The translations under genes and the position numbers were made by a program. This document shows positions 12,991-40,640 of a stretch of DNA of 64,000 nucleotides, piece by piece. Source of the stretch: Prorocentrum cordatum (Eukaryota). Positions within the stretch are counted from its first letter, which is position 1; every line of letters starts with the position of its first letter. The notes under the pieces are model-generated. The model was given only the letters and a program-made list of their open reading frames with translations, searched no databases and was not told the origin of the DNA. The stretch is taken from the NCBI GenBank assembly GCA_963575745.1, contig CAUYUJ010000270.1, positions 434,001 to 498,000 of the forward strand, given 5' to 3'.

Positions 12991-13169
12991 CGGTTGTGCT
13001 CCTCCTCGCCAGCGCTCCAACCCCGGAGGCTCCGGGGGCCAGTCGGCGCCGACGCCGGCGCACGGGAGAGGGTCCCAGCTGCCTGCTTCCTGCCGATCAG
13101 CTGCCTCTCCTCGCTCTCGCGCGGCAGCAGCGCGGGCCCGGCGGCGAGCGTCCGCCCGCTCCTCACGGC

Positions 13170-15300
13170 GCGAGGGTTGGTCTGCAACATTGAACTCGCT
13201 GGGCACCCAGCGCGGCCGAAGGCGACTGTTGGTGGCGAGCAAAAGGGCACCCGCCTGCTGGCATACTCTGAGTAAATCATATGAGCACGCGCGGCCCTTG
13301 GACAGCGCGAAGCACAACCCCATGCTATCGACGAGCAACAAATGCCGCTTTCCAAAATTACGGTGAGCCCGATAAAGACGTCTTGGCGCCAAGATGACCG
13401 TCCTACCTTCCTTGATCGTGATATGTTCGTCCAGGAACTTCCAGGTACCATGCAAGACGACGTCCCAGGAATCCTGCTTCATGAGACCTAAAGGTGCCTC
13501 GGGGAAATCGGGGTCCTCGGCGCACTTGAAAAAGCCCCAATCTCCAGCATCGCCCCAGAGGCCCTCCTTGGAGACCCCGGGGGCCCAGACGCACCCAGCG
13601 GAAGCGAGGTCCTCTTGGGGGTCCAACCCTAGGGAGCGAGACCTTGGGGCCCACTGGTCGGGCGCGAGTCTTTTGAAACGCCGCCTCTCATTCCACCTCC
13701 CGATCCTTCGGGCGCTCTCCGCATCAAGATCGCGCTGGCGAACTCCGTGCCCCGTCGGCGAGGCATCGGTGCACGTGACAGCGGGATTCCACCCCTGACG
13801 AAGATCAGCGACGGCGAGTGGCAGAAGACCAGACACAATACGACACTCTTTGCAGCAGCTCGGCCGGAGACGTTCGGGCTCGCAGCTCTGCGCCACGAAG
13901 TCATACAAGTGCCGCAAGACTGGGGGCGTGCTTCGATTCAACATAGCGATATACATGTAGTGCCCGATGAGCCTCTGAACGGTTTTTGCGGATACCACGG
14001 GCCCAGTACTCAACCAGTCAAACACCACGATCAACTTCCAAAGCTTGTCGGGGCCCGGGCTGAGAGTACCAGCATCCCCATGTAGAACCAAGCCCAGCAC
14101 GCGGGCGACGAGGGACGGTCCCGAGATGTCGTGTATGGTGAAGCCGTCCTGTTCCATGTCTCGCTGAACATCATCGCGCAGCTCGCCAGCTAGCTTGCAC
14201 GAAAAGGCGCCCGCATTCAAATTATCACAGTACGCCATGTAGACGCGCTCGCCTGCCTGCATGCTCGGGACGGGGTGCCCGTCCACTAGAACGAACTTAT
14301 CCGAGACCTCCCTATGTGCAACTTGCATGTGAAATTCTTGGACCAACCAGAACGACCAGGTAAAACCCATGGGCAGGACAGTCAAGCACATCGATACCTT
14401 CTCGTCCAATCCGACATCACTCAATAACTCCCCCGGTGCACCGGCTTCCAGAAGATCCCCGACGACGGCATCAACCTCGAACGCGAAGAAATCTGAAAGC
14501 TCATCGGAGACCCCGCACTCGTAGAAACAGTCCTTGATGCCACCCTCAGCCCAATACAGGGCCTGACCTACTGGGATCTCCAGGTCACTCAAAGAACTTA
14601 AACCACCTAGCTCTGTGTGCGGGGGAGGGGCGAACCTAAGATTACATTGGCGGCAGTCGAGAACCAAGCGTTGCACCCCCGACTTCTTTAGAACCGTGAA
14701 CGCCCCGATTCGAGCAGCAGGGCGCCGAGTGAACCTCGCAAGTCCCCGAGAGGCCATCCTGGAGGCAAAAGCCTTGAACCCCCAGGGGCTCTTCAAAAGC
14801 GGGTCCGTGTAGGGGGGCACTCGGACGAGACCGCTGCCCCGACGAGCATCTTGTCTTCAAAATTCCGAAGGCATTCCTGAGGCAAACCTACCAAGACTGA
14901 CTCCAATTCAACAGGCGAGCGCTCCGCGTCCAGAAACGAAAGTTTCTCCAAAACCATGGGGGCCCGGGGGCCCTGCCCCAGGTCCCCTGCGTAGTCATGC
15001 CGAAAAAACCCGAAGCTCCTGACGGGCCCCTGGGCGGGTGACACTCGGAGGCCTAGGGCCCAGCCCACGAGCGCGCCCCATCAGATGACCGAGAGCAGCG
15101 CGCTGGCACTGCGGCAACGTCATCAGGTCTGAGACGGCAGGAGGGGCGGGCGCATCACGGGCACCAAAGTACATCGAGTTGAGAGCGCCCACCGACTTGA
15201 TGACTGCAGCGGCCACGGCCCACCGACGTGTCCGGCGTCGCGTCGTCGAACGGCGCGCCCGTCGCAGGTCGCCTCGTCGCCCTTCGGCGAGTCGAGGCAA
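13170..15300 (-). pseudogene. DIRS-type reverse transcriptase-RNase H (frameshifted N-terminus; first catalytic Asp apparently mutated)
   Basis: RLVLDCR, (G)IKDCFY, LPMGFTWS, YCDNL; RNase H TDASPTG, TIKEG, LLVDS, RWVPSEFNVADQPSR. Confidence 0.9.
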
Positions 15301-19198: not shown

Positions 19199-19744
19199 CT
19201 CGGAGGGCGCGAGACAGAGACAGAGAGATAGAGGCACTCATACAGGCAGGGAAAATCCTAGTACTCCTCCTCCTCCTTCCCTTTCCCTAATAACCAAATC
19301 CTCCCTCTCGCTCCCCTAGAGGTGTCGGGCCATTTCACCTGAGAAGCTCTCACCAAACCTCTGAGCGCAGGTGTTATGACAAGCCCTTCTCGTCCCTCTT
19401 CCAAGACCCAAGACCTCCCCTCCTCGGCCGGGGTTCCCCACCTCAATCAGTGTCTAGGCCCCCCCCCCACCTTTCCGCGAAGAGTTCGTTAGAGCGTCCA
19501 AGGTGACCCCAAATGGCTCCAAGAGCGCCTTTCGTGGTCCAAGATGGCCCCCAAGATGGCCCCCAACGTAGCCGACGATCACTCAAGATAGCCTTCGCTT
19601 ACCTCTAAGATGCCCCAAGATGGCCCCAAGATGGATCCAAATGCCCCCAGATCCCCCCAAGGACCCACCAAGAGGTCAACATTGTAATTATGCTAATTCG
19701 AGTGAGGGGCCGAACGGCCATTCACTGTCCATGGGCGCGTGGCT

Positions 19745-19890
19745 GAAATGAGGTGTTGCGATGCGGGTTGTTGTTGTTGGTTTTGGTATTGCTGTTGTTG
19801 TTGTTGTTGTTGTGGTTGATGTTGTTGTTAGTGTTGGTGTTGGTGTTGATGTTGTTGTTGTTGTTGATGCTGATGTTGTTGATGTTGTTA
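19745..19890 (+). repeat. (GTT)n microsatellite preceded by a conserved dispersed motif
   Basis: AACGGYCATTCACTRTCCATGGGCGCGTGGCTGAA at ~19714 and ~40368; degenerate copy at ~3360. Confidence 0.85.
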
Positions 19891-21679: not shown

Positions 21680-21955
21680 TGTCCTCTTCCTCCTCCTCCT
21701 CCTCCTCCTCCTTCCCCTCTTTTTCTTCCGCCTCCCTCCTCCCCCTCCCTTTCCTCCTCCTCCTCCTCCTCCTCCTCCTCCTCCTCCTCCTCCTCTTTCT
21801 CCTTCTCCTTCTCGCCCTCCACGTCCTCGCCCTCCTCCATCTCCTCCTCCTCATCTTCCTCCTCCTCCTCCTCCCCCTCCTCCTCCTGCTCCTCCTCCTG
21901 CTCCTCCTCTTCCTCCTCCTACTCCGACGACGACGAATCCTCCTACATCCTCCCC
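21680..21955 (+). repeat. (CCT)n microsatellite
   Basis: Direct inspection. Confidence 0.95.
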
Positions 21956-24333
21956 CTCTTGGGGCATATGGCGGCTTACCCTGCCCTTTGTTTTTCTTCA
22001 TGCTCCCCCGCTTCCCTCATCACCTCCACTCCCCTGGGACTCATTTCTGGACGGGCTGATGGGGGTACTTTTTGATTGGCGGCTCCAAGGACATATCCAG
22101 GAAGCGGGACGGTCTCGACTGGGTTACAGGGCGAGATCATTAGCGGCGACTGTGCATAGGCCGACGCAGCAAATGCACGTGCCAGGGACAAAATGCCCCC
22201 CATTAAGATGCAGGCGACCCGGAAGCGGGGACGCAGGCATCATAAGGAAACGGACGGAGGAGAAGTCGCACAGTGGCGCCAGCTCAGTCCGTACCGACCA
22301 GCGCGCAAGGGCGTGGGTCACGCCGCGCTGTGGCAGCACGGAGGGGCCAGTGGGGCCGCGCCGTCCATCGCGACGAGGAGGCGAAGGAGCGGGGAACGGC
22401 GGCGGGCGCGAGGGCACGCGAGGACAGAAGAGGGAGGGGACCGAGGAACGCCTCACTCACAAAGACTCCTGGAAATACTCGGGCATGAGCGACCGACCTA
22501 TGCGAGGAAGCGTCGGCCCTGTCTTCCGAGTCCACAACCTGCAACTGCCTGACTCTGGAAGCCAGGGGGGTACAACTGCAATCACTGGTCGAGCACCACG
22601 GGCCACCCTGCGGGAGGGCCGAGAAGCACTGCCAAAGGATATACCACTTGCGCAGTAGCCAGAGCTCGAAGGCGGCGCCCGCCGTGGGAAGCGAGACAAC
22701 CGGGCTGTCGGCGCACAACGCGGGAAGCTCATCCGTCACGGGGGGCGGGGGCACAAAGATGCGAGCGTCAACCGTGGTAGCAGGGGCGGACCTGATGGGG
22801 GAACAACGGCGCCCTGTCAAAGGATGAACCACTTGTCAGGACAGCGCTCACCTCAGGTCCGGCCCCAGGCGGTGCCAGAGCGGGGCGGCGCGCCGGGCTG
22901 CGCCATGCCGTAGCCCAGCACCTGTAGCGCTGCGAACCGCTCCCAGTCCACGCGGGCGAATCGCGCCCGCTCCAGGGGCTGGAGGAGTCCGTGCCTGCGG
23001 GGACAGACTGCCGCAGACCTTGGCTGCCCAGATCATCGCATGGCATCCGCGCTGTCCGAACGCACCTCGGGGCCCTGCCAGTGAGCCCCCAGGTGTCCAT
23101 GGATGCCCGAGTGCTCCGGTGGAGCGGGTCGGCGGGGGGGAATTCGCTCGGCACTGTGCGCCGTATCAGCGCAAGAGGAGGAGGAGGAGGGGGGGCGCAG
23201 CCGATAGCCGCACAATCCAGTGAATAGACGGAGGAGGAGGGAGAGGCAACGCCAATGTCGAAGCTGCGCGGGCAGAGTGGCCTCTGCGATCCCTCCGCCG
23301 CTCCCAGCGGAGGGCCCTCAGCGACCGCGGGGGGAACAACGCGCCAGACCTCGGCGGGGGTCTGCGCTGTCACTTGCCCGGAGCAGCACAGCCTGGAGGA
23401 TGCACGTGAGGTGTTGCCACGTGAAGTGGCACGTCGGACGTGACCAAGGCCACCGAACTGGGATGGTCCGTCACATTGCAGCGCACCCAGGCGGGGCGCA
23501 CTTGGACGGGGGCGCAGCAAGAGCCGCAAAAAATGATGAGTGGTAAAGAATGGTGGAGCGCGTGGGGTGCGCCTCTGGCCAACATTCCCAGTCGCCCAAA
23601 GTAGGGGCCCCGGAGGGGCGGACATAGACGGACCCTCGCCCCGTGGGAATCGGGTCAAAGGGGGGAGCACGGGGGGGTGGATTATTTCAGCCACCGCCCC
23701 ACTGTCCAGGATGGGACCACGAGACCAGCGTGGGCTGTCTAGTACGCAGCGCATGGGTATTGGTGCACCTCTGCCCCATAAGAGGTAGCACGGGGGTATT
23801 AAGGCCAAGGCCTGGCGCTGCGGTGAAACCTGCCCCCATCAAGGTCAGGAGCAACCACGAGGGAAGCTGGGCCGTGGGGGACTGACACCTCACGCTGCCC
23901 TCAGCCCCCAATCCCTGCGTCGCTGTGCGAGGCAAAGGGCCGGTTGAGGACCACGGGGCTGCCAACCCAGCGGGCTCCGCCCGGAGCTGCGGGGTCCCAG
24001 ATGGCCCGCAGGGTCAGCGCGACGGAGACCACCTTGTATAGGGAGGGGAGGGGTTGTTCCCAGCTGCCCAATATCGATATTGCCCAGGAAGCACGCGTTG
24101 CGCTCCATGACGGGCCGAGCAGCAACTCTGAGAATCTACATTTTCTGGTGGAAGAAAAAGTTTGAGCCGCAGACACGCTGCGCGGGCCACCCTCCGCGGG
24201 AAGCAGGGGAGGGGGCGGGCGAGCAGGTGGGGGGGAAGCGGGTATCACGCACAGCGAAAGGTCCCAGACAAGGCGGGCCGACACCCCCGACCGGGGGGAG
24301 GGGGTGGGCACCAGCGGCCAGGCAATACCACGA

Positions 24334-24969
24334 TCACTTGGGGCAGAAGTCCCATCCCCGCTGACGCTTGTCTGCGTAGTGGGTTTCACCTCTGGGGGAG
24401 GACCACTTCCCCTTGGCCTTCCAATCCGCGTCGGCCCATGTGTCTCGCTGATGGCCCCACTCGTCCCATGACTGCCATTTACTCCAGGGTGCTGCCGATC
24501 CAGATGCACCTGTCCGTGCGGCAGCCCTGTCTTCAGTAGGCCATGGGGGGGTCTTTGTAGCCTCCTTGCCCTCGTCGGCCCACGGGGGTGGGCGTCCGCT
24601 TCCGATGGGCGCGTCGGCAGTGCGTACTCTGGTGTCGCGCTGCGTGAGTCTGCGCTGCTTCTCCATGCCGCTTGGCCAGTCGACGTGGAGCTGGTATTCT
24701 CTGTCCATCCTGTAGGCGTCGTATCCCAATTTGCTCCATGCCTGGAGGAAATCGTCGCAGTGCTGTACCGTGTTTCGCCTGGGGTCGGACTTGATGTTGG
24801 CCCAGGCGCTCCCTTGCCTATAGGCTGCCTTTCTGACCCAGGCGCTCCATGCCCCATTGAACGCGCCTCCCAGCGTCTTCTGCATTCGTGTGATCTTATA
24901 TGGTGCCGGCTCGTCCCTTGCGACGTCTGCATCGTCGATGGGTCTCAAGTACATGGGGAGGCCTCCCAT
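24334..24969 (-). CDS. Unknown domain with Trp-rich tail; probably the frameshifted C-terminus of the helicase polyprotein
   Basis: 211-aa protein-like ORF; linked to 25188-28868 via an in-frame TAG and ORF 24945-25157. Confidence 0.5.
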   Translation of the reverse strand: MGGLPMYLRPIDDADVARDEPAPYKITRMQKTLGGAFNGAWSAWVRKAAYRQGSAWANIKSDPRRNTVQHCDDFLQAWSKLGYDAYRMDREYQLHVDWPSGMEKQRRLTQRDTRVRTADAPIGSGRPPPWADEGKEATKTPPWPTEDRAAARTGASGSAAPWSKWQSWDEWGHQRDTWADADWKAKGKWSSPRGETHYADKRQRGWDFCPK

Positions 24970-25187
24970 GGGATCATCAGGGCGCGCTGGTGGGATTGCT
25001 GCGGTCCGTGCGTCGCGCCACCAGCCCTGGGCGTTGTGCCGCGGCCTGGTTGCGCTGCGAGGCGGTGTGGCTGAGCGTTCTCTGGTGCTGTCTTCGTCGG
25101 CTGTGGGTGGTCGGCGGCCCGCTTCGTTCCCCGATTGTCTAAGTGTCCTGCCGTCACTGACTGCGTGAAAGCTCCAGGTCCGCTCCT

Positions 25188-28100
25188 CTATAGGGCGGGC
25201 TTCGACCCTCCTCCATGCGCCACTGGGTGCTCCTCGATCAGTAGCCTGCGCAAATGGCGACCAAGCTTTCGAGTCGGCCCTGCGGGGGGGCTGGGTCCAG
25301 AGTGGGGGGGGGGGCTTTGGGTCGACTTCCGGTCGGTGGGTGCTGGGCCGCCGGCGTCGTCCTCCTGATGTGCAAGGCTGGCCTGCGACCCGGAGTCTGA
25401 GGTATCCGGCGGGCTGCCGTGTGCCTGGGCGTCTGGCTCGGATTTATTGTTGGCATCGTCATCCCAGTCAATCCCTTCCACGTCGCCGTCGCCATTCCAG
25501 TGCTCTGATGAGGGCGGCTCCTTTTCTGGGGCCCCATCGGGCTGGCCAGGTGCGTCGGGTTGTTGGGGGGAAACGTTTGCGCGGGTCGGGGAGGCGACGC
25601 GATCCCCAGCGTGCTGGTTGGTTGGGGGTGATTCCTTACACTGGGGCCTGTTGAGCCAGCTGGCGGCAGGAGACTCTTCTTCTGCCGTGCCTCTGGTCGT
25701 CGCATCCTGGGGCTGGGCGGCGAGGAGTTCAATCGTTCCTCTGGTTAGGTACTTCTCCAGCCTTGTGAGGAACTGCGTGGGGACATGCAACGGCTGTCGG
25801 TAGGGGCCCTGCCCTTTCTGATGATCGGGGTTGCTTGCGTAGCGCTCCCATTCCTCTTGATACTTTGGGTTGCTCTCCACCAAGTGTGAGACTACCCTGG
25901 CAGCTGCAGCCCTCTGTCCGTCCCATGGGATGCATGGGGGTTGGCCGTTGCTTGGGATATCCTCTCCGTAGATTGAATCCAGGAAGGGCAGCAATTGCTC
26001 GAAGGGCCATCCCGTTTCGTCAGTTACATCGCCCTCGATGCCCTTCCCCTGTTGCTGCGCGAAGGCCGCCCAGAGGGTGTAGGCTGCGTGGCTCCACTCG
26101 ATCAGGTACTTCACCAGGGCACGAACAGGGCCTCTCGACTCACCCCCTGCCAAGCGGAGGGTGGAACATGCTGGTAGCAGGGGCGCTGGGGGCGGCGGCA
26201 GGTCGGGAAAAGAGTGGTCGATGGAAGCTCCATCGGTTGAACCCCTTTGTTCACCGTGCACAGTGGGGGGCCGCGCCGACCAGTCATCGCGCGGTGGGAA
26301 AGGCGCGTCCGTGTCCGCGACTGGGGCCCTGCTGGCTGGGGAGAGGTGCGTAGACATGTCGTAGTTGTACCAGCCCTCGGGAATGTCAGTTGTGGCCTGC
26401 CGCATGGCAGGGATGGCAGGGTACACCTCGTTGGTGTAGTGGTCGAGTATGCGGTCGAGGACGCCCGGGGCAATGTTCCAGATGTGAACAAGGCACCTCC
26501 TGCAGGCCCATTCCGCGTTCCACTGCCGCGTGACCCATAGGAGGGGCATTGCGTCCCACGGCGGGAGTCCTGTCTGCTCGTTGCAGTTTGCTTCTGCCCC
26601 TGGGCGCCACATGAAGCATCCGAGGGCTGGACGGCCCGGCTTCCATTCCAGCAGGGGGGAACGGGGGGGGCAGCTGTCACGCGTGGCCGAGTGCATTTGG
26701 GCGCGGTGCGCTTCTGCACCAAACCTGCCGTCGGCAAGCCCGCGGGGTGGGAGGGCGGCGCCGGCACTGGATGGCCGGAAAGGGCGCGGCGCACGCATGA
26801 CGAGGCCCATCAGGGAGGAAGGGGCCGAGGCGTCGTTAGGCCGACCGAGCCCCAGCGGGAGGCTGGTCAGCGAAGGGAGGGTCCGAGCTCTCTTGCGCGC
26901 TCGGTCTTCTTCCATTCTGCGCTTGTACTCCTGCAGACGCTGCTGCATGGCCCTCTTGGCACCGCCTTCAGCCTGGTTGGGGCCAGGGACATGAACCCCC
27001 TTACTTCCCAGGGACCTGACCCAACACAGCTCGCAGAGCCATCTGCAGTTCTTTCCCTTCATGTATGCCTGTGCGCGGTTTTGAGCTAGCAGCTCACGGG
27101 TGTCGTCATCCTCCCAGGTGCCAGCTGCTCCCTGCAATCCCGTGCTGGGGCAGAAGTCGCAGTTGTAGCTGGCGTCCTTCTGCAGCCTGCAGAATCGCTC
27201 GTCCCGTACTATCGGGGGGGATAGCGCTGTACCTGGAGCTGGTGAGGCCGGGGGGTTTTCGTCAAGGCGGCGGTTGGACAACGCGACCCCGCCTCCTATG
27301 TACTGCAGGTCTGACATGGTGCGTGGACTGCCGAGCCCCTCCTCTGATCCGGTCAGCGCCTTGTGCAGCTGGCAGATGGGGCAGTCTCCACTGCTTAGCT
27401 GGTTGACATTCGCGGGCTGGACTATCACTTCCAGTACGCGCATGGGGGCCTCCAGGGTGAAGTCATGCTCCTGCATTCCTGCCCATATCTGAAGGCATTT
27501 GTGCGTCGCCGCAGTCTGATGGTGATGAGCGAAGGTGGCCAGCGTGCTGATATGGCGAATGACCTGCTCCATCTTGGCGTGGGGGGAGGCGAAGCCGGCA
27601 AGCTTGAAGCCCCACGCGGCAGCAAACTGGCTGCGAAATTCCTTGTGGGCCTCCTGCCACGGAAGGCAGAGACCCATCGCCGCTTCTATGATGTCACCTG
27701 TGGCCTCTGGATGTGGGAATGGCCAGAGTGTAGCGCGCGGCTCCCGCAGTTGCAGCATCATCGCCACAAGTAGGACTCTGAGCGTGGGGGCATTGAGTGC
27801 GCGCCCGTCGTTACCACGCAGGGCAGGCGTGATAATCGAATCGGCCTGTTCTGGGCGGAGCAAGGAGTGCAGGTGCTCCATCCCAGGGTGCACCCTGTGG
27901 CGTTTGCAGCTGCATGTGGCGGGGCCCCAGGCAGCGGGGAACTGGGGGAGCGCGCCGACGGGGGTGCACCTGCTTGAGGGCTTGGGGCGGCGATTGTTAC
28001 CAACAACGTGGGGCAGCGGGGGGAGTGAGGTGAGCGGGACACTCAGCTGCGTTGCGTGCCAAGGTGTGCCCAGTCCTCGGAACCAGACCAGGGCTGCCCA

Positions 28101-31100
28101 CGTCCGGTTGTATACCAGGTTGCTGGCGTCTATTCCGACCTCCACGTCCAAGCAATACCCCAGGTGGCTCCAGGCTTTCCTATCGAGACTGCCCGGCTGC
28201 CTGGGGGTGGCACCCATGGGCCACTGGTGGGGATGGAGCCCGGCGACCGTGTAGAGGATGATTCCCATTGTAGGGTCGTCGACAAGCTTCTGCATGCTGT
28301 CTGCGATGGCTTCGCCGAGCTTGTCCCAGGAGAACAGGGGATCGAGCGGTGCAGCGATGCGCTCCGCAAAGCTGTTCTCCATGGAGGTCTTGGCCTTCTT
28401 GACGGCGTCGCCTAGACCTCTCATGCTATCGCCCCCGGTGTGGGTGGGGGCGGCAGGTGTCCATGTGGTGAGGTCCTTGATGGGGTCAAGCTCCTCGTCG
28501 GTCTGCAGCCTTACCCTTGTGCCCAGGTCGGCCCCTTCGAAGCGGACCCAAAGTGTGGCAAACCTCCCGTGCTCCGAGACCTCCCGCAAGCGAGCTCTTG
28601 TGGCAGTTCCAAACATCCTTCCGTCCCCGAGAATGACCACGTTGGTGGTGGCGCGCGCGATCGCGACCTTCACTCTGTTGGGATTGTCCATGAAACCCCA
28701 GTCATGCCAGCTGTTGGACCGGGTGGTCAGGTAAATGACTAGATCTGCCTCCCCGCCCTGGCTGGAGTCTATGGTGGAGATGGTTAGCTTGCCGCTGGCA
28801 AGGTGCTCCTCTGCAATTTGTCGCAGCCCGGGGAAACGCAGGCCGATGCTGGTGAGGGGGAGCTTCATTGTGCGAACACGCGCTCGTGGTCCTTGGTGTC
28901 ATCGTCGTGCTCGGGGGGATGCGTGGGGTGACCTCCCGTCTTGGCTGGTCCGCCCTTGCCCTCCCCTTTATCCTTGGCCTTGGTCTGCCCGAGGGCGCCG
29001 CTGATGCTTCGCCCTGACTGGGGCCGACCGTCTCAAGGACTGCACATTGTAGCTGGTAGCCTACCACGAGGCGCACTGTCGTGCCGTTCCTCATGGCAGG
29101 CAGGAGCGCTCGCACCATGTCCACTGTCTGCGCGGCCTCTGGGAGGTTCGCATACCCCGAGTGCAGGTTGGAAGTGACCTCGAGGGAGGGGTTGTCCACC
29201 AGGAGGAATCGGTGCCTTTCTTCTGGACCCTGGGGTTCCGGTGCAAGGTCCCGCAGCATCTTCTCCAAGTCTTCCGAGGGGGTGGCCGTGGCTTCGGCTA
29301 GCGCTTCGAGCCTTTTGCTGTCCCAGGGCAGTAGCTCCCGCCATGGTAGTCCTTCAACTAGTGGCCTTTGCGCGAACGGGTCGGTGAGCCCCGACCGTAT
29401 TGAGTTATTGTAGAAGGCAACATTGGGCCAGGACAGGAGCAGGGGGTGCATGCGCTAGCAGAGGCTTAGTTGCACCACTGCTGATGTATCATCTCCCAGG
29501 GCGTTGTGCAGCCGATCGAATATGGAGATGCATAGCCCGAGGTCGGCTGCCTTTCTGGAAAGGACGGCGGGGGGAAGTTGTTTGGGGTCGCCCACCGGCA
29601 CCAGGTGTCTGCCGGAACGGATGACGCTGTCGAGCGACATGGCAGCCATCAGCTCGTGGGCCTGTCCTACTTCGTCGATGATGAGCAGGGCTATTGGTGC
29701 AGCATGCCTGAGGGCCTCCGCGGACTCGTGCGCCGCGATGATCGTCTTGGCGTCCCTAAGCAGCTGTGCACGGAAAGCATTGAACTCCTTGGAGGACCCG
29801 CCTTGGCGCGGGGGGCGATTGCGCGTTCCGTAGAAATTCCCCCCTGGGGTGAGCGGGGCAAGTCTCTGCGCCACCCGGGATTCTTTGGCCAGACGGACGC
29901 GCCTGTTGGGGAAGCTTGTCCTTTGTCCTAGTCTGCAGGCTTCGTGCGCACTCCCGAGGCCAATGGCAGGCTGGCCCGCTGCTGTGCTGGACCCGGCGGT
30001 CAGTGCAACTGCCTGTCCATCGGGGAGCGAGTCGGCCCAAGTGTCCATGGTGGCGACTGAAAAGACTGTCTTGCCAGTCCCCGGGGGCAATGTACGACTG
30101 CCGCGTGGCGTTGTCTGGTGGCGGCCAGGGCACGCGCCGCATCGTCGTTAAGTCGATGGCGCTTGGCGCCATCGTCAAGGGTGAGTGCTGGGGGGAGGTC
30201 TCTGACTCGCTGAAATACCTGCCCAGTAGCATTGTCCATTTCTTCGTCGGAGAACTTAAGGGCGCGTCGAATGGCTTCTCGTTCTGCTGCTGCGGGCTGG
30301 CAGCGCCAGTGTTCGCCACTGCCGGGGGTGTGCCTGGCAAGGTGCCTGGGCCCTGATGGTGGCCCTCGCTCGCGAGAGGGGGGAAATGCCGTGCGTCCTG
30401 ATTTTTTCAACGTCGTTGGCCAGAGTCCTGTTCTTCCTGTCGGTGGTTCGGAAGGTGAAGGGGAAGGAGATGACGTCGAGAGGCGTGCCCGCAAGGTCGT
30501 CTGGGGCCTGCTGCAGCTTGTAGATTTCGCTGATGGCATTGGAGATCCGCCAGTATTGCAGCGCGGGGGGTGCCTTGTCCAGCCTGCACCAGCCGCCCCC
30601 CTCCTTCTCTGGTTTGGGGCGCGCACCGTCGGGGTGGAACTCCCCAGATTTTCCCGCGTCGTACAAGGCCATGGCTTGGTTGGTGGGGAACTTGGCCCCC
30701 TGTCGTAGTCCCATGGCTTCGCAGTCGTGGAGGGGGATGGCGCTTCCGAAATCTGGGGGGCCAGGGAAGTTTGAGCGAAACAACCTGGTCCGCCGTTGGG
30801 CTGGTGATGTTGAGAAGCATCGTGCGAGCTTCCTGCCCACCCTCCTGCCTTCTGAACAGAATCTTGAACTCTCTTGGCCATTGCAGGTGCAGCAGCAGCT
30901 TCCCCTCCTGGGTGGGAAATGCGTCGCGCAGCCTGTACTTGTCTAGGAGTTCGCAGGGGGTCTGCTCATTGATGGGGGTGACCGACGCGGCAAGCGCGCA
31001 GCTCTGCCTTCGTACCAGGTCCGTTCTGGCCTTGGCAGAGCCGTCCCACGCGGTTTCGGTGGCTGCCATGCACGCGGCCCAGGCCAGCCTGTCCAGGGCG

Positions 31101-32036
31101 TTCCCTCTTTGTCGTAGATCCTGCTCCCAGTGCTTCGGGAGGCCCACCCCGGAGGGGACCGAGCCCAAGGGGGATGTGGAGGCGGAATTGGGCTCCCGGG
31201 CTGCTGGCGGGGACAGCGTCAATCCGGGTGATGGCGTCTGCTGCTGCAGCCGCTGATGACTCCATTATCGCCTGTCCGCTCAGGGGGGGGAGGTCGCCCG
31301 GCCAGTCGTCTCCGCCCTCGCGCGAGGGTCTCGCCCGATCCATTGAATCCTGAGAGGAGGCCCTGCTGGGCGCATTGGCCCGTCTCCCCCTCGGGAGCGG
31401 CGAGGTGGATGGCCACCCTAGTGGGGCGGGGGGCGCATCTGTGGGTGGTGGTGGCGGCGGTGCTGAGCCCCCCCAGGCTCTGACCGTGCTCCAAGGTGTC
31501 ACACCCCAACCCCCTCGGCACTGGCCGGGCGGTCGTAGGTCTGTCGAGTGAACGGCGTCAAGGGAGATGGAGAAGTCGAGCGAGTCGTTGCGGAAGGGGA
31601 AATTGACAGGGACGTAGTCCCAGTCTTCTGGAAAGCTCCACCCTGGCAGATGTGAAAGTGGGCCCGCCTTCACTGGGCCTGGCAGCTCCCAGCCGGGCCA
31701 TAAGTGCCTGTCAATGGTGCGTTTGGTCACCTTGTCTACACTCTGACCCAAGGTCCTGGTCCAGATATTGCCTTGGTCGGTATAATGCCTAGGAGTCTGG
31801 CCACTTTGTGCCCCGCTGCTTCGCTGCCTCCTCGGCATGGTCTCCTCCCAGGAGGTGTTCTTTGCCTTCGCAGTATCTTTGGCACACCTCGCACCACCAG
31901 CACCATTCATGGTTGAAGTGCGCTTATCTGAGCCATGGGCACTCTCGCGCACAGAAAGGAAATAGGCCATCAACCTTGCCCGGGCCCTGAGCACGGGGTT
32001 CGGTGGGGGAAGGCCATCTGGCCAGTGGCCCGCCAT
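25188..32036 (-). pseudogene. Upf1/SMUBP2-family SF1 helicase polyprotein (AAA_11/AAA_12), frameshifted; helicase core ~28600-30150
   Basis: RLND...(C)PPGTGKT, IIDEVGQ, VGDPKQLPP, SIFDRL, RMHP, YANLPEA, GYQLQ, TIDSSQGGEADLVI, RSN, GFMDNPNRVKVAIARA. Confidence 0.88.
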
Positions 32037-32144
32037 TGCTCTTCTTCGTCATCCCGCAGAAAAAGGGGGGAAGTGCAGCCGAGAGCCGCAGAGCTGGAAA
32101 ATGTGGGTGGTGGAGGACGAACTTGAGCCGCGGCAGAGATGACC

Positions 32145-32800
32145 TCAGTGGTCGCAGGAATCGGCCGATCGGCGATCCGATCGGGGCGGAGCAGAGGGGG
32201 GAGGGGAGGGGGGGCATTCCAGCAGGAGAGCGGCCTCAGCCGCTTCCGCGGGGTCGCATAGGTTGATCTCCCGTAGGTCGATGCTGGGAAAATGCTCGGG
32301 CTGGGAGGGGGCGTCACTCGCCCAGTGTACGTGTGAGGTGACGGCGGTCACGCCTTCCTTGCGGAGGGCACCCGCCCAATATACCCCGATGGTGGCCAGG
32401 CTGTCCGCGGCCTTGTTTAGCCTCCGTCTGACCGCTTGCCACGTGGGCACCCAGCCAGCACCTTCTGCCTGCCCAAGGGCGCCCTCCATCTGCTGGGCCA
32501 GATGGAGCCTTCGGCACCTGGCGGCACCAGCGCCGTATCGGACCGCTGCGAGGTTGTCGCCGACAATCCGGGCCGTCCGGATTGGGCCCTTGAGGTGGGG
32601 GAGCAGCGCCAACCCGGCTCGGCAGCCTGCCACTTCCGCCATCTGTGCATTGTCGCAGTCGGGAAGTGCGACGATGGCAATGGCCAGGGCCCGGGGGATG
32701 CCAGTGTTGGGATTGCGATGCCACGGGATGGTCCCAGCGCCGGAGACTTTGCCCGCGCCTTCGATGGACCTTGCGCCACCGTCGAAGGTGACTTCATAGG
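32145..32800 (-). CDS. RNase H1 domain of the LINE polyprotein
   Basis: TFDGGAR..GAG, NAQMAE, IVGDN, VRRRLNKAADSLA (D-E-D-D tetrad). Confidence 0.9.
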
Positions 32801-33484
32801 GCCATCGGGTGGAGTTGGAATCGGGGAAGGGCGAGCTGCGGACAGTGACCTCGTCGCCTGGCTCCAGGCACGCGTTGGCGATCAGCGTGGTGGTGTGGAG
32901 CCCGCACTCCCGACCGAAAGCTGAGGACCATCTGGCGGTGGGAGAGTCGTCGGTCCTAGGGCAGGGGAACCAACTGTTTCCTGGGGGCATCCATGCAGCC
33001 CGAGTCTGGGGCGCTTGTAGGACCACGATTATATCCCCCGGGTTGTGGTGTCTGGTGACAACAGGGAGTCTGCGGATCTCACCTCCTGCCCTACGTGCAT
33101 GTCGCTGCAAGTGGGGCCTCGCGGCGCCACAGATCGCTCTTTCGGGGGTGGTGCACGGGTTGCAAGTGCGGCAGGTGTCGCGCAGGACGGTCCAGACGGC
33201 TGTCTCGTCTGGGTTGCTGCTCCTGGGGGGCTCGTCCACCCCGAGCCCCTCCTCCTCGCTGTCACCTTGCTGGTCGATGTCGGTGGCCACTATGCCGCGC
33301 AAAATGAGTCTGGCGGCTTCGACGGCCTCAAGGGGGGAGGCGGTGAGGTTGACGCAGTACCTGAGGGGAATTTGGTGCAGCACTTTGGCAAGCATAGGTT
33401 GGTGTTCGCCGCTGCTGGCGATTGCTTGGGCGAGGGTTGGTGGGGTCGTCTGAGCCCCGTATGGTGCGCCAGGCTAGTGCCGCG

Positions 33485-33550
33485 GCTGGGCACCAGTGCC
33501 AGACGTGCTCCGTGGTCGCTTCTCCGAGCCCACAGAGTGGGCAGCGCCCG
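33485..33550 (-). other. LINE-type CCHC zinc knuckle
   Basis: CPLCGLGEATTEHVWHWCP between RT and RNase H. Confidence 0.8.
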
Positions 33551-34789
33551 TGCGGTCCGCTTCTGTTGGGAGGTTGTAGGTGCCCCCGCGTGCTTGTGTA
33601 GGCCTCGGCCTGGTCCCTTAGGGAAGGGGGGGATAATTTCAGGGGGCAGGGTCTGCCAGAGAGCGGATGCATGTGGGCCTGTGCCGATGCATCTCGCGCA
33701 CCAGGCAGCGCCCTCGTCGTCGGGGCCGGCGGTGATCCATGCGTTTCTGGCTGGTGCTCCGCATGGGCACCTGTGTGGTATTCTTTCGTCGTCGCCCCTT
33801 CGTCTTGCCGAGCCAGGTAGACCGCTGCTGAGGGCCCTAATCACGTGGTGCGCTTCAGTGAAGGAGGTGCAGCGGTGTAGCAACTGCCATTCCTCCCCGT
33901 TAAAAGGTTGCCATATCCTTCCTTGGCTGGCTTCCAGGAACCATCTTGTGAAGTTTTGGCTGTGCATCGGGGCCCGTGCGGCCGTGTAGGAAATCCTGCC
34001 GACATGTTTGCCTTCGAGGAGGTCGGGTTGCCGTTTAGCGCGCTGCAGGGCCCGCGCGGCTTTCCGTTCGGAGATCATCTTGGGTCTTGGGGGGAACGCC
34101 GCAGGCTCCTGAGCTGCACGGTTTCCCCCTTTCAGCAATTTGTCCCACCTGGTGCTGGCTCGCTCCCTGACAGGGAAGGGCCCCCAGAAATCGCTGAGGG
34201 CGTGTGCTCTGGCAGCGACCGCGCAGGCAGTCGCGACCGGGCACCTGGGGGCGCCCAGTGCCTGGAAGCGAATGCCCACTCCCGTGAGGACAAAGTCAAG
34301 GACCCAGGAGGACCCGGCCAGACCAAGAGCGGTCCTTAGTTGGGCACGTAGTTCGCGCACTTGCACAACGTCGGGGAGGGCGTAGCGAGCAGCGTGCGGC
34401 GCCAGTGAGACCAGGTGCGCATTCCAGGCGGCGGCCGTGCGCGAGGGGGGCATCTTTGCCAGGTGCAGAGCCATTGCTCTTTCTCTGATCTTGGGAAGGG
34501 GGCGGTCCCATGTGCCTTTGCATATAGGGCGTCTTCCTGCTCTTTAGTGGGCCCCCCGTTCGATGGAGGCCCATCGCTTCCCGCGGCGCGGGGAACCCCC
34601 ACTGCCCCCAGGTAGGGCCACTGGTCCCGCGCTGAGGAACCTCCGAAGGGAGTGTGCTCCATGAGGGCTCGCCACCACTCGTGATTGCCGGCTGGGACAA
34701 GGGCTGCATTGAAAGCGCGGCTGCAAGTGCGTTGATAGGGGGTGCAGCAGTTGGGTCGGCACTGCCCTGCGCTGCATACCACGAGTGTC

Positions 34790-35800
34790 TATATGAGCTC
34801 GCCGGGGGGCCCAGAGATAAGCACGCTGTCACCGTCCTGCTCGTAATGGGCGGGTGCCTCTTCCAGCGCGGCTCTGAGCGCTGCGGAGTCCTCGGTGCGG
34901 ATTCCTCTGCATCGGCGGGCCTCGACCAGGAGTCCAGCAGCCTTGGCGGCCCAGGGGGGGGGCGATGGCCGCACGTAGCGTCTGTTTCGTTGTGCTGAGT
35001 AGAGCGGCGAGGTCGTCGACGTAGGTGGGATCATCGCCCCCTGTGATGGAGGAGATCGCAGAGATGAGGGGGTCGTACCTCATGCTCCAGAGGAGCGGGG
35101 AGGCTGTGCCACCCATCCCAACCGACCTCAGTAAGCGCCGCTCGGGACCTTTGTATTTTCCCTTTCAAATCCGTACTCTTCGCTCGGCGACCAATGAGTT
35201 GAGGGTCTGCAGCAACCGCGAAGGGAGCTTCCATCTACGAAGGAGGCTGTCCACCCATTGAAGTGATATTCTGACGAAGGCCTTATTCTGGTCGCAGAAG
35301 ATGACAGCAGTGCCAGGGGCGTTACCCAGCGTGGTAGCGGCGCGGTTGACTAACGCATCGACAGCGGCGGTGTGCCGCCCCAGGAGTGCGGCCCAGGCGG
35401 GGCCTGGTTCCGCTGGGGGCTTGGGGGGAGAGCTCAGGTGCCAGGTCACCTTTGTGATGTTGGGGCCGCATTGTCCTCCTCGCTTGGCAGCCCGGTTGGG
35501 GCTGAGGAGCGCTTCGACAGCCGGGCCTATTAGGTCAGCCAGAGAGGCGCCGTACAGCCGTCGAATGCAGGTGGGAAGTTGCAGCGGTCTCATGTCGTTG
35601 GGGGCTTCAGCGCCGGGCCTCTTCCCGATCCACACCAGCAGGTCGACAGAGGGTCCTAGCACCTCCTCGATGAGTGACGGGTTGAGGTCGGCGGCGTACC
35701 GCGCCTGGGCGATGAGGCAGGCGACGAATCTTGCCCCGGGGTGATATGCTTCGCACGGCACCCCGCCCACCCCTGGGGCGCTCCCGCCAGGGGTGAGGAC
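34790..35800 (-). pseudogene. Non-LTR reverse transcriptase (frameshifted)
   Basis: SAPGV(G)GVP, WIGK, MRPLQL, FCDQNKAF, GMGGTASPLLW, YVDDL. Confidence 0.92.
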
Positions 35801-36679
35801 GATGGCGGCTAGCCTTGCCCAACTTGGCCTGGGCCTGTCTGTGACCTCGATACCGGGGTGTCGCTGGAAGTAGAGGTCGAGTAGTCTCTTGGCGGTGCCG
35901 GGGAGAGGGGGGGCAGAATGCCATATCGCACTGCGGCTGTCCCAGACGACGTTGTCGATCTGGTTGGGCCTGTCGCGCCACGTGCCGCTGTGGTCGCGCG
36001 CGCCTAGGCTGGCGTGGGTTTTCTTGTATATCTCACGCCCCGTCCTGCAGTGGGCTGCCAGGGGTGAGCGCTCCGCCCCGGGACCTCCTTGTGAGGGGGA
36101 CAGGCGCGCTGCTCTTCTCTGCGTGACCTCGGCGCCCAACGCCCTGAGCCGCCGGCCAGCCTGGTCTGGGGCGAGGTCCTGCCCATCCCAGCCTTACTCG
36201 CGAAGCCAAGCCGCCAGTGTTCCCACAGGGCGTGTCGTCTCACTCTCCTGACTAGCTGCTGCGAGCAGAAGGCCTGGAGAGGCCCGCGTTCTGTGCGTTT
36301 TCCATTATTTCCACCAGTCCAGCAGTGCTGAGGAGAGGGCATGCCTGCCGAATCCCATGAGGGTAGCGAGGACAGGCGAGGTGGGGCCACCGCCTTCTGG
36401 CCCCCCTACCGCGCTAGGTTGCGCACTGGGGGGGTTGTCGAGAGAGGCGTCGCCATCGTCGTTGTCCGGGCGTCGGTCGGGGAACCCGCCCGGGCAAGCT
36501 GGTCTGATCCAGTCGGTCGGCTGGAGGAGGCCGCACAGGCTGACAAGCGGGACACCGAAGGAGAGCTCAAGGTGAGCGTAGAGCTCTCGGAGCTCCGCGT
36601 GCGCAGCGGTTGGGAGATTCCTGAGGTCTGCGGTTTTCATGGTATCATCCCTTCTAGCCCTCTTCGCACCCTGTGGTTC

Positions 36680-37345
36680 GAGTGAAATGAGGGCGTGGTC
36701 CGACAGCGTGAGTCTCCACAGTTTACGGGGCTCGTATGCGTGGACATGCTGGACTGGGCATGCACACATGTCGATCTGCGATTCGCTCTCCCTGTCGATT
36801 CTGGTGGGGCCGGGCATGTGTATGGCGGCTGGACCGGAGCTGGTCAGAACGCCCCCCAGGAGGGCTGCGGCCTCCACCTCTCCGTCTCTTGGGTGCTCGA
36901 GCTGCAGGTTGACGTCGCCGCCCCAGTATGTGTCGAGCGGCTCCCAATGCTCCACCGCTACGGCGATTCCTGCAAGGGTGTCCTCCTTTCTGGTAGGGGG
37001 GGAATACACTGACACCAGACGAACTCTCCTTTCGCGTTGCTGGACGATAGCGGAGAGGGCGCAGCCTGGGGCCAGGATCTGTTGCTCCAGGACGGGAATA
37101 CCGTGGGGGGGGGGATGCCGACACCTCCGGCGAGTCCTCCAGTTGGCCCGAGGTACCTGGGGGAGGCCACAAGAGTCCTCGCTGGAAACATAATTCTCCA
37201 AACCTCAGCTTCATGCTCAGACCAGTGCGTCTCTTGGATCAGGGCGATCCTATTATTCATCGTGACCTGGGTCAGCAGCGCGTGCTTAATCTGGTTCTTT
37301 CCGGCTGTGCAGCTTCTGAGGTGCCTCGCGTTCCAGCAGCTGATC
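36680..37345 (-). pseudogene. Apurinic-like (APE/EEP) endonuclease (frameshifted)
   Basis: CWNAR, IALIQETH, SVYSP, GGDVN, SQIDM, LSDHALI. Confidence 0.92.
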
Positions 37346-37869
37346 CTGGGCACACTGTTAGGGGGGGTGGTGTTGAGGGCCCGTATCACGTCATCTGAGG
37401 TGAGGCTACCGCACATGGTGCCCCATGTGGGCTGTCTCCAGGGGTCGGTGTGCAAGAGAGACCAAAGGCCTCTCGGTCCACGAACCTCGTGGTGGCACAT
37501 GGCTTCAAGTGCCCCGTTGAGCGCGCGTCGCGCCTGCGCCCAGGCGCGCGCGCGAGTCCCCGGCGCCAGGGCGCGGCGGGGGGGGGGCCCCAGCGCTCGG
37601 TGGAGCGTGCTGGGGCCCTCAGCCGAGTCTAGGGGCTTGCTAACTCGGACAGGAGGGCTTCTTCGCGCCGGAGCTGTTCCGCGATGTCGTCTGGGAAAGG
37701 GTGGTTTCTGAGCTGTGCCCGCGGGCATTGTCTTCCTGCGCGCGCCCGCGCCGCTGTCCACGCGCGCGCTATCTGGCTGCCCGTCGGGGCGGGGGCGCAG
37801 GCCAGTGCTTCCGAGCGTCTTGTGGTCCAGGAGCGCATCGCAAAGACTATCCTGCGTTGGAGGCAGCGC

Positions 37870-38980
37870 GGATCGAAGTGTATGCCGACCGCGTCGTAGA
37901 GCGTCCTGTCGCTTACTCCGAGTCCGCGGTAGTACCCAGCCAAGCCTACAGCTCTTGCTCTTTCGTCTGCGCTGGGGGGTCTGAGCCCGTGAATTCTGCC
38001 CTCCTTCACTAACCATCTTCCCCGGGCCCTGACCTTGTCTTCCGTGGCCGGGCTCTCCTTTCCCTTCCGGACATGACTAGTCCGAGACCTTCGGTGCACC
38101 CTGTAAATCGCTGTTCTGCACCGCAATCAGCGAGCATCTGCCTTGCCCCTTGCTTCAGCTCCGCTGGGTTCCGGAGGAACCACCTGTAGTTACTGTCTTC
38201 GTCGTATAGGGGGCATGGGAGGTGGGTCTGGTAACTGCTGGGAAGAATGGCGTCTGGGTCGTCCTGGGCGGTCCTGGACTGCGTCCATGTCGGGATCCTT
38301 CCGTCTGGTCTGTATGCCCATCTAGGCTCCCAAGGACTGGGGAGTCGGTTGCATGCTATCGCGCTGGTGCGGGGGGGGGGGAGATCGCGATCCATAGTCG
38401 CTCTCTGGGGCTGGCCACATGTTCACCCGCGTTCATTTTGACTGCCCATTCGGGGCTGATCTCCTCTATGGCCATTCTCATGGCGCCCCGATGAGCCAGT
38501 GGCATGGAGGCCACGTTCCCCACTAGGACCAGGACCGAAACGTCTGGCCTTCTCTTGTTTGCGAGGTACCACGCTGTTGGGACTGCAAAGAAGTGGGAGG
38601 ACTGAGCTCCTGTCAGACCATCCCTGCCAGCATGAGTGCCTGCTGCTGATAGGTTGTTACAGGGGGGTCCTGCCACTATTAGAAGGGTGCTGCCCTGGTC
38701 CAGGGAGTCCACGTGTTTTTCCCAAGGGGTCCCGTTGTCGTGGGGGTCCTTACGTCTGAAGAGGTCCCATACATCTTCCGCTGTTTGTCTATGCGGTGGG
38801 CCCCCGTCTTGAGGGTCTGGGGCGTTTGCCCATCTGCGCGTCACCGCCCCCGCCGCAGTCCTATTGTGCTCCACGAAGGCCGAGGATCGAAAGCTGCTGG
38901 TGGCTCCTAGCTTGCTAACGAGGTCGCCCACCGCGAGTCTGGCGATTCCCCAGCCGTCGAAGAGTAACACCAGGTGTAGG
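37870..38980 (-). pseudogene. C5 cytosine DNA methyltransferase domain N-terminal to APE
   Basis: LFDGWG (I), AGPPCNNLS (IV), V(G)NV (VI, ENV mutated), SPRERLW (VIII), RPPSADERARAVG (IX), DAVGIHF (X). Confidence 0.85.
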
Positions 38981-40284
38981 GGGCAGCATTCGCTCGTGGG
39001 GCCGTGTTGTGCTGCAGATCCGCCTCCACCTGTCCTTTGCTCCTGCTGTGTGAAGTTCCGTTCCGCTGCTTCCTGCATGCGGAGCCTGCCCGCATGTCGT
39101 CGACCGCCTGGTCGGGTCCCAGACGGATGGTGCCTTGTTCATGCAGGGACTGTAGCGCGTCTCGGATGGTGTTGTTGTCCAAGCCTGCTACCTGGCAGGC
39201 GGCAAGCACCTGGTCGGGAGGGGCTCCTGGGGAGAGCCCGGTTTCGCGATCTCTGTGCTGTGTCCATACCTGTTGGGGGACGTCGATTGGTTGTGGGGCT
39301 GCGGTGGGTTCGGGGGGTGCAAGAGGGTTAATCCTGGGCCTTACCGTCCTCGTTCCTTCTCCCGGTCCTCGCAGTTCAGCTGAAGTGCGTGCGAGACCCC
39401 TTCCAGGTCTACTCTGCACCGGCACTGTCGGTTGAGATTCCCGCATCGTTGCCAGGGACCGGGAATGGTTCTCTGCCGGCCTCGCGGTTCTCGGCTTTGT
39501 CCTGGGTCGCGTGCTCGTTCCCAGGGGGCCAGCCTGCCGGGTCCTCCTACTTCGGCTTCTACCTTGCCGTCGTACGGGGCCTATCGGCGTCCTGTCCCTG
39601 CTCTGCTGGTTTGCCTGCTGCTGGTGTTGGCGTTGGGTTGTGGTCACCTCAGCAGCGCCTACCCCTAGGGGCTGGCCCTCTGAGTTGTGCATCCTCTGCG
39701 GGGGGGTCAGAGGAAACCCTGCCTCAGCTTCCTGTGGCGGTCGTTCAGTGGGGCTGCCGTGGGGCGGGTCCCCCCTGAGGTTGAGCCAGGTGGGGTCGAC
39801 CGCCCTGAGCCCGCTGGTATTGGGGCCGGGAGCGTCACCCATGGCGACGGAGAGGATCCTTTCGAGGATCTCTTCGGTTAAGGGGGAGAAGGGGCATGCC
39901 GGCCCTCCCGCGTCGGGGATTCCGTTAGCTGCGGCTTGTAGGTGCGCGCAGGCGTCGCCCGCGGTTAGGGCCGCGCTCTCGGCCCCCCTACGCAGTGGGA
40001 GGGACTAGGATGCACGGACAGAGCAGAGTGGAGGACAGTTCGCAGCGCCATCGCCTGGGGCACTTCCATGCTTCAACTCGCAAAGCAGATCAGACAGGTG
40101 TTCACCAGAGCCTACTTATCTCACAGACTGATCACCCCCTTCAAGGCATACTGGGCACAGCACCCGCCGATCGGCACAAGGAGCTCGGCTCCCGAGAGGC
40201 CTCCCACGATATCAGAACGAACCACCAACCAAGAAGCTGTTAACCCACAACCCAGGCACGGAAGCGGGATGGGCCGAAGGCCAC

Positions 40285-40640
40285 TGTACATATGTATGTG
40301 TGTAAATACATGTGTTTATATGTGCATACATATATGTACATGTGTACACATCAGGAGTGAGAGGTCCAACGGTCATTCACTATCCATGGGCGCGTGGCTG
40401 AAGTGAGGTTCTGCGGTGCGGATTGGTGTTGTTGCTGCTGTTGTTGGTGATGATGTTGCTGCTGTTGATGTTGTTGGTGTTGTTGCTGGTGGTGTTGCTG
40501 TTGTTGTTAATGTTGTTGTGGCTGGTGTTCGTGTTATTATGGTGTTGCTGCTGCTGGTGTTTGTGGTGTTATTATTGGTGTTGGTGTTGCTGTTGTTGTT
40601 GTTTGTTGTTGTTGCTGCTGTTGTTGCTGTTGTTGCTGAA
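40285..40640 (+). repeat. (TA/TG)-rich tract, conserved dispersed motif and (GTT)n
   Basis: Same layout as 3310-3430 and 19690-19890. Confidence 0.8.

Follow-up and report, generated by a model that had tools for sequence, protein, structure and literature searches.

An 18-kb block in the genome of the dinoflagellate Prorocentrum cordatum carries a giant retrotransposon of the long interspersed nuclear element (LINE) type that, in all probability, includes a third gene centered on a Upf1-like helicase. The block lies in a window of 64,000 nt, the whole stretch of DNA that was analyzed (contig CAUYUJ010000270.1 of assembly GCA_963575745.1, positions 434,001–498,000 of the forward strand), and coordinates below are those of the window. 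It consists of three decayed, intronless reading frames, all on the minus strand, and its coding core runs from 39842 to 24334. We read the block as a decayed, probably near full-length copy of a three-gene LINE lineage and give this reading, with the workings proposed below, a probability of about 0.75. The structural claim is that this is one LINE element, in which open reading frame 1 (ORF1) encodes a DNA methyltransferase (DNMT), ORF2 an endonuclease (EN), reverse transcriptase (RT), and RNase H, and ORF3 the helicase; we make it with good confidence. An earlier, sequence-only reading of this DNA had proposed a LINE carrying a helicase as cargo, and its claims are taken up with the results that bear on them. 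The main features are as follows.

22030–40285, minus strand: whole element, delimited by the step in GC content, the contrast in tandem repeats, and the bordering repeats; neither end is exact
37700–39842, minus strand: ORF1, DNMT-like and frameshifted, assigned from motifs, phmmer matches in the PDB, Atlas matches, and a match to metagenome locus L002
32145–37650, minus strand: ORF2 polyprotein, assigned from colinear tblastn alignments of the relatives P0152, P0153, and P0154, Pfam matches on relatives, a PDB profile search, and motifs identified by eye
32053–32144, minus strand: spacer of 92 nt between the ORF2 stop codon (TGA, 32147–32145) and the ORF3 ATG at 32052; residue 4 of the relative P0155 aligns at 32046
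24334–32052, minus strand: ORF3, ~2,500 aa, colinear with intact relatives of 2541 and 2945 aa
22030–24333, minus strand: 3′ region of ~2.3 kb, a presumed 3′ untranslated region (UTR), with element-like GC content and no conserved ORF or codon periodicity

Linkage of the RT and helicase ORFs in other copies had been set beforehand as the test of the proposal, and it was found, as judged by identical contig size, on all four contigs that carry a full-length helicase protein. Clustering at 90% identity gives 12 members for the ORF2 relative P0152, with contig sizes of 26613, 18658, 27133, 10780, 8276, 2023, 15598, 8797, 9347, 24281, 833, and 13669 nt; for the ORF3 relative P0155 it gives six, with contig sizes of 15598, 2489, 27133, 26613, 712, and 24281 nt. 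Each of the four full-length P0155-cluster members is on a contig whose size matches, to the nucleotide, that of a contig with an ORF2 member, and the other two members are 182-aa fragments on the contigs of 2489 and 712 nt. The four contigs are from metagenomes (ENA) and bear intact ORF2 relatives of 1,723–1,811 aa and ORF3 relatives of 2,535–2,541 aa. Variant pairing is constant, with an 1811-aa ORF2 accompanying a 2541-aa ORF3 on two contigs and a 1723-aa ORF2 accompanying a 2535-aa ORF3 on two. On the 15598-nt contig, ORF2 and ORF3 amount to 13,056 nt and leave at most 2.5 kb; because they take up 13.06 of 15.6 kb, the two ORFs are adjacent. Between the two variants, identity is 93.6% in ORF2 and 88% in ORF3, and the window copy is 50.9% (ORF2) and 43.7% (ORF3) identical to them, a parallel divergence indicating that the two halves diverged together. 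These data support ORF3 as a conserved and integral part of the element's gene set, as opposed to a chance transduction.

The helicase could instead be a separate multicopy gene or mobile element that adjoins the LINE, whether by site-specific insertion upstream or as nested repeats. Such an arrangement would fit the undefined ends of the block, the unproven sharing of termini by its two halves, the stand-alone annotation of ORF3-like proteins in P. cordatum, and the distant ORF3 relative P0001, whose contigs match no listed RT contig in size. We nevertheless consider it improbable, given an RT ORF on every full-length helicase contig, constant variant pairing, and one contig with no more than 2.5 kb to spare. 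The 92-nt spacer leaves no LINE 3′ UTR between ORF2 and ORF3, and no gene for mobility, such as one for Rep or a transposase, is found with the helicase. Similar decay in both halves, as the sequence-only reading had described, is borne out by counts: ORF2 has three frame changes and five in-frame stops in 5.4 kb (~1.5 lesions per kb), and ORF3 has at least seven frame changes and two in-frame stops in 7.6 kb (~1.2 per kb). The helicase is thus pseudogenized to the LINE's degree, and GC content and CpG depletion are likewise uniform across the two halves. A single 3′ transduction event or a chimeric assembly at this locus would account for the single copy visible in the window, but the same pairing occurs in independent metagenome assemblies, in a lineage 44–51% identical in protein, and we regard this explanation as very improbable indeed. 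With ORF3-like sequence on eight P. cordatum scaffolds and on the linked metagenome contigs, the helicase is neither single copy nor a one-off capture. To call the helicase cargo is probably mistaken, given that its ORF has been conserved between lineages with RTs only ~50% identical.

ORF3, as an integral gene of the LINE, comprises the following parts.

31860–31930, minus strand: N-terminal zinc finger of the form CxxC...Hx5H (WCEVCQ...HLLGGDH), identified by eye and kept in P0155, P0175, and P0001
28620–30147, minus strand: Upf1-like superfamily 1 (SF1) helicase core (AAA_11 plus AAA_12), from Pfam and PDB matches
27497–28340, minus strand: helical post-helicase domain, weakly RNase III-like, from an AlphaFold model and VIA-align, with motifs G(L/I)DAxN and GDxxEAxxG
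26320–27220, minus strand: Cys/His-rich region (AHHH, CxxC pairs, CRWLCxxCW, CxxCLVxIWN), conserved in P0155, P0001, and P0002
24337–24520, minus strand: Trp-rich C-terminal tail

The helicase ORF had been placed ~110 bp downstream of the RNase H region with a start at 32036. A short gap is present and so is that ATG; the ATG at 32052 gives the gap of 92 nt. The frame continues past the Trp-rich tail to 24334–24336, and a Upf1-type helicase ORF extending to 24334 is confirmed. Pfam matches in the window are AAA_11 (E = 1e-13, 29458–30147) and AAA_12 (E = 5e-5, 28705–29454), and AAA_12 is matched at E = 7e-13 at the start of a 1236-aa frame (25191–28898). As a control, none of the 22 plus-strand ORFs of at least 150 aa in the block had a Pfam match at E ≤ 0.1. 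The best PDB matches of P0155 are UPF1 (1.8e-26), SEN1 (5.6e-23), and IGHMBP2 (2.9e-22). Walker A and motif VI have decayed in the window copy; in P0155, P0175, and P0001, the Walker A and B boxes and motifs V and VI are all preserved. The AAA_11 plus AAA_12 core with its motifs identifies ORF3 as a Upf1-like SF1B helicase. Two intact proteins are colinear with the window frame: P0155 (2541 aa, ~45% identical) in eight pieces, from residue 4 at 32046 to residue 2457 at 24676, and P0001 (2945 aa, 31% identical) from residue 8 at 32013 to residue 1848 at 26418. The N-terminal finger presumably resembles the matrin/U1-type fingers. Cellular Upf1-like helicases (UPF1/NAM7, SEN1, IGHMBP2, ZNFX1, and DNA2) have the same AAA_11 plus AAA_12 core with all motifs. 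ORF3 differs from them in being encoded by a transposon, in having ~600 aa on the N-terminal side and ~1,400 aa on the C-terminal side that belong to no Pfam family, and in its identity of at most ~30% to any named protein.

RNase III-like, zinc-finger, and Trp-rich parts had been proposed to follow the helicase. The Cys-rich fingers and the Trp-rich tail were found, and conservation continues for 750 aa beyond the helicase, taking in AHHH and several CxxC pairs; the RNase III-like part is limited to a weak fold match and a motif. An AlphaFold model of the post-helicase part, built on an alignment of 80 rows, has a mean predicted local distance difference test score (pLDDT) of 70.6, with values of 75–95 over residues ~85–435. 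When its helical domain was compared with known structures in VIA-align, the top rows were RNase III chains, with Z scores below the level that the tool calls meaningful for helical folds: Entamoeba RNase III (5f3o, 5.8) and a trypanosome editing-complex chain (9dei_B, 5.7), followed by mini-RNase III (3.7) and Giardia Dicer (3.4). The motif GDxxEAxxG is invariant in the four sequences (4/4) that fully cover it. A Foldseek search of the model against the PDB and viral structures returned nothing at E ≤ 0.001, and neither Pfam nor a PDB profile search (alignment A5) detected RNase III. Because the Z scores fall below the meaningful level and the Pfam and PDB profile searches were blank, the RNase III likeness of the model is, we stress, a lead and not a finding.

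These data bear on a second explanation, in which ORF3 belongs to the element and serves counter-defense: acting like Dicer or as a Upf1 decoy, it would degrade or sequester the double-stranded RNA that arises from the element, or it would protect the polycistronic element RNA, in which much sequence lies beyond the first stop codon, from nonsense-mediated decay (NMD) and RNA silencing. The succession of a helicase and a helical domain whose top structural matches are RNase III chains would suit such a role, as would the invariant motif. UPF1, the NMD helicase, is among the closest solved relatives, and weak silencing-suppressor activity is described for insect LINE helicases in the text of PMC6338049. 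The fold match is weak, however, at a Z score under the meaningful level for helical domains, and RNase III is absent from the Foldseek, Pfam, and PDB profile results; we judge this explanation unlikely. A bolder version is doubtful, namely that the third gene of dinoflagellate giant LINEs (18 to ~27 kb) is a Dicer-like RNA processor, with SF1 helicase, RNase III, and zinc fingers, working with the element's DNMT. If it were true, a giant LINE would itself process or protect its RNA as well as mark its DNA, an autonomous RNA-silencing or anti-silencing and epigenetic module unseen in other LINEs. ORF3 resembles Dicer and RNase III in having a helicase followed by a helical domain with RNase III as best fold match and a DxxE-type motif (GDxxEAxxG); it differs in the weakness of that fold match and in yielding no RNase III match with sequence profiles. 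The helicase of Dicer is of the SF2 RIG-I type.

We tentatively prefer a role for ORF3 as a cis-acting remodeler of the element's ribonucleoprotein (RNP) that aids full-length copying, while holding this part of our reading at somewhat under even odds. The element would be transcribed as a single RNA of at least 18 kb, serving as both mRNA and template, and trans-splicing of a spliced leader (SL) onto polycistronic RNA is a possible route for expression of the three ORFs. As in LINEs generally, ORF2 would nick the target and copy the RNA by target-primed reverse transcription. The zinc fingers of ORF3 would hold the very long, 64% G+C element RNA, and its ATP-driven 5′-to-3′ translocation would clear structure, proteins, or RNA:DNA hybrids so that copying could be completed. 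The substrate of the DNMT would be nucleic acid of the element, as has been suggested for the SymbioLINE-Dnmt elements discussed below. The RNA-remodeling, (anti-)silencing, and epigenetic toolkit that the sequence-only reading saw in the element is likewise a hypothesis.

ORF3-like sequence is multicopy in the dinoflagellate assembly. A HMMER search with 1200 aa of the long frame against 1.84 billion representative sequences gave 579 proteins at E ≤ 0.001. Seven of the ten mid-length matches that were looked up are entries named "unnamed protein product [Prorocentrum cordatum]", each from a different scaffold, and P0044 sits on an eighth P. cordatum scaffold. A word-based protein search with the 1236-aa ORF returned nothing, a scan of metagenome contigs with alignment A3 found no relative, and a search of sequencing runs listed no RNA run and a single DNA run, which contained 0.26 of the words sampled. 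Four fragments (P0004, P0005, P0006, and P0011) are ORF3-like and 72–84% identical and come from a EukProt set labeled as the green alga Pyramimonas sp. CCMP1952; all four short matches that were looked up come from that single set. Either dinoflagellate-like sequence is present in the Pyramimonas set, or the family extends beyond dinoflagellates. The P. cordatum protein P0139 (CAK0837147.1), named "Condensin complex subunit 2" in UniRef, matches the C-terminal part of ORF3 (residues 929–1072) and may be a gene model fused with, or misnamed over, a transposon fragment. P0134 and P0180–P0182 (CAK0865422–25) are four consecutive NCBI models on one P. cordatum scaffold and fall in one 90% identity ORF3-like cluster; they may be tandem copies or several models on one locus.

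The second gene follows the plan of LINEs with an apurinic/apyrimidinic endonuclease (APE), with the domains placed as follows.

~37350–36660, minus strand: APE endonuclease (motifs QETHW, GGDVN, SDH)
~35900–34650, minus strand: RT (FCDQNKAF near 35300, YVDD near 35020)
~33780–33680 and ~33545–33490, minus strand: zinc knuckles
~32710–32380, minus strand: RNase H (motifs FDGGAR, GDN, NKAADSLA)

An order of C5 methyltransferase, APE, RT, CCHC zinc knuckle, and RNase H had been read from the letters, and it holds in the motifs, in colinear intact relatives, and at locus L002. A word-based search with the RT piece recovered three full-length metagenome proteins of 1735–1811 aa that are 52–59% identical, and in tblastn alignments P0152, P0153, and P0154 are colinear over 37635–32256 at 42–59% identity. 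Exo_endo_phos or Exo_endo_phos_2 was found on two of these three relatives (P0153 and P0154) and on ORF2 of L002. An ORF2 profile searched against the PDB matched R2 RT (7e-6) and, less well, the LINE endonucleases 2v0s (0.01) and TRAS1 (0.33). ORF2 thus has an AP-like endonuclease N-terminal to a LINE-type RT in one ORF, as in APE-type LINEs. A SET-like domain had also been placed between the zinc knuckle and RNase H. It gained no support: there is no Pfam SET match at E ≤ 0.1 on the three intact ORF2 relatives and no usable Atlas match for the corresponding stretch (P0152 residues 1430–1615). A model of the neighboring stretch upstream of the SET-like part (417 aa, 33293–34543) is poor (pLDDT 40.5). 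A metagenome scan with ORF2 found three short JGI loci (1.2–4.9 kb), none of which extends to ORF3, and viral contigs gave no match to ORF2 or ORF3.

ORF1 starts at the ATG at 39842 and has a low-complexity N terminus. DNMT motifs I (LFDGWG), IV (GPPCNNLS), VI (GNV replacing ENV), and VIII (RERLWI) lie within 38359–39138, and a conserved C-terminal part lies at 38012–38422. Its top PDB phmmer match is to the plant DRM2 methyltransferases (E = 0.004, at motif IV), and 28 of 30 matches in the language-model Atlas are to PF00145 (score 0.94). At the JGI metagenome locus L002 (3.3 kb), a 577-aa ORF matches both pieces of ORF1 in the window (E = 7e-15 and 2e-12) and is directly followed by an APE-bearing ORF2, which provides independent linkage of ORF1 and ORF2. 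The window element thus has a C5-DNMT in an ORF1 upstream of ORF2.

The earlier description of an unbroken, minus-strand block at 22030–40080 that is free of microsatellites was confirmed from GC content in windows and with Tandem Repeats Finder (TRF). Each 2-kb window throughout 22001–40000 has a GC content of 0.63–0.665, against 0.585 and 0.51 in the adjoining windows, and TRF found no tandem array within 22030–40080. The CpG observed/expected ratio (o/e) is 0.77 in the element (0.74–0.80, uniform over the ORFs) against 0.86–0.92 in the flanks, and that of GpC is ~1.0. The 5′ end is placed between the ATG at 39842 and ~40285, with 40080–40285 as the narrower interval and a TG-rich repeat followed by (CAA)n as its border at ~40285 (to ~40290), and the 3′ end near 22030, just ahead of a (GGA)n tract at 21950; no A-run was seen at the 3′ end. 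GC3 periodicity revealed no further gene over the 3′ 2.3 kb, the window contains no Cys/His pattern of the RING type, and an Rfam search of the window had no match. A search for spliced-leader relics gave no match to the dinoflagellate SL motif with up to three mismatches, and its 3′ 10-mer is no more frequent than expected by chance. Small hairpins and GNRA loops, counted on both strands of the element, show no excess (9 against ~6 in shuffles).

A direct repeat of 181 nt flanks the block (19700–19880 and 40355–40535). It consists of a 76-nt unit on the plus strand that runs into a (TTG)n microsatellite at these two places, and a further copy lies at 3344–3416. The copies of the unit are 85% and 72% identical, and two of them bracket the LINE at unequal distances. 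The repeat was considered as a long terminal repeat and rejected, because it is a dispersed 76-nt unit plus (TTG)n with a further occurrence at 3344–3416; the unit looks like a small dispersed repeat outside the element. This is the only flanking direct repeat, and the element accordingly lacks long terminal repeats.

Several observations weigh against our reading. Proteins are taken to share a contig on the strength of identical contig sizes, and order, strand, and spacing on the ENA contigs are deduced only from the 15.6-kb case. The P0153 and P0154 clusters and the distant P0001 (contigs of 12584 and 19167 nt) have no contig size in common, and for this reason linkage is shown for one lineage besides that of the window. 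The profile matches of the first two genes are also weak. Pfam was run on 50 minus-strand ORFs of at least 50 aa in the upstream half. AAA_11 and AAA_12 are found in the window; the matches to DNA_methylase (E = 0.11, 38359–39138), RVT_1 (E = 0.039, 35168–36193), and the RNase H-like RVT_3 (E = 0.1, 32148–33473) are sub-threshold, although they follow the order given by the sequence-only reading. Even on intact ORF2 relatives, RVT_1 scores 23.9–28.6 bits against a cut-off of 29.6. The RNase H call combines its motifs with the RVT_3 match at E = 0.1, and each single DNMT score is weak. Finally, the exact ends, target site duplications, and 3′ tail of the element are undefined: the best candidate duplication is a 10-mer (22100/40260) of a kind expected by chance.

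The closest known kind of element is SymbioLINE-Dnmt, a family of two-ORF LINEs from Symbiodiniaceae (de Mendoza et al. 2018, PMC5890265), to which we liken the window element by its architecture. As described in the main text of that paper, these elements share with the window element a dinoflagellate host, a DNMT ORF1 upstream of an ORF2 with EN, RT, and RNase H, the lack of a poly-A tail, and CpG depletion. The depletion in the window element is mild (0.77 against 0.86–0.92 in flanks), and, where SymbioLINE-Dnmt is described with two ORFs, the window element has a third of ~2,500 aa and is at least 18 kb long. The word "helicase" has 0 occurrences in the main text of PMC5890265. Insect LINEs of the TRAS/R1 and Jockey groups carry an SF1 helicase domain that originated from plus-strand RNA viruses (Lazareva 2015 and Morozov 2017, as cited in PMC6338049); according to the text of PMC6338049, the helicase of insect retrotransposons was acquired and, in the LTR cases, is translationally fused. 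The insect LINEs are likewise non-LTR retrotransposons with an accessory SF1 helicase. Whereas their domain is described there as viral, the helicase of the window element is of the cellular, Upf1-like type and sits in a giant ORF of its own with extra domains, in an element that also has a DNMT. No LINE with this gene set was found in the literature searched, including a 2026 preprint on methyltransferase retrotransposons, supplements being outside the scope of the search. What is new is a DNMT-LINE with a conserved third, helicase-centered giant gene; the base plan is already known from SymbioLINE-Dnmt.

The surroundings of the element are rich in repeats. TRF found 37 tandem arrays in the left flank (16% of bases) and 50 in the right (24%). 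Trinucleotide microsatellites (CAT/CAG/CCT, GCG, GGA, and others) are very dense in the flanks, covering 16–24%, for example at 8.4–10.6, 17.2–17.8, 20.85–21.13, 21.7–21.95, 43–44, and 49.3–49.5 kb, whereas the 18-kb element has none. From this contrast, the insertion would seem either to postdate the process by which such repeats are seeded or to resist it. Satellite-like arrays have periods of ~22 and 73 nt (60.2–63.7 kb), ~10 nt (6.3–6.9 kb), and ~53 nt (55.1–55.3 kb). An open frame of 1004 aa (11845–14856, minus strand) lies inside a block of GC content 0.64–0.65 at ~12–16 kb. It has a weak Pfam match to DNA_pol_viral_C, the C terminus of hepadnavirus-type polymerases (E = 9.5e-4, below the cut-off), no PDB sequence match, and no tblastn similarity to the LINE ORFs, and may be part of another retroelement.

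LINEs are regarded as compact, with one or two genes in 4–8 kb, and the element described here exceeds the size known for LINEs. Its third gene spans 7.6 kb, is conserved between lineages with RTs that are about half identical, and more than doubles the element; it extends the DNMT-LINEs past the two-ORF elements of the Symbiodiniaceae type. It also raises the question of how an RNA of at least 18 kb and 64% G+C is reverse transcribed in full, and whether a helicase encoded by the element itself is the answer. Animal relatives of Upf1-type helicases act on LINE RNPs; here, nature offers a case in which one transposon has both a nucleic-acid methylase and a helicase of the Upf1 type.

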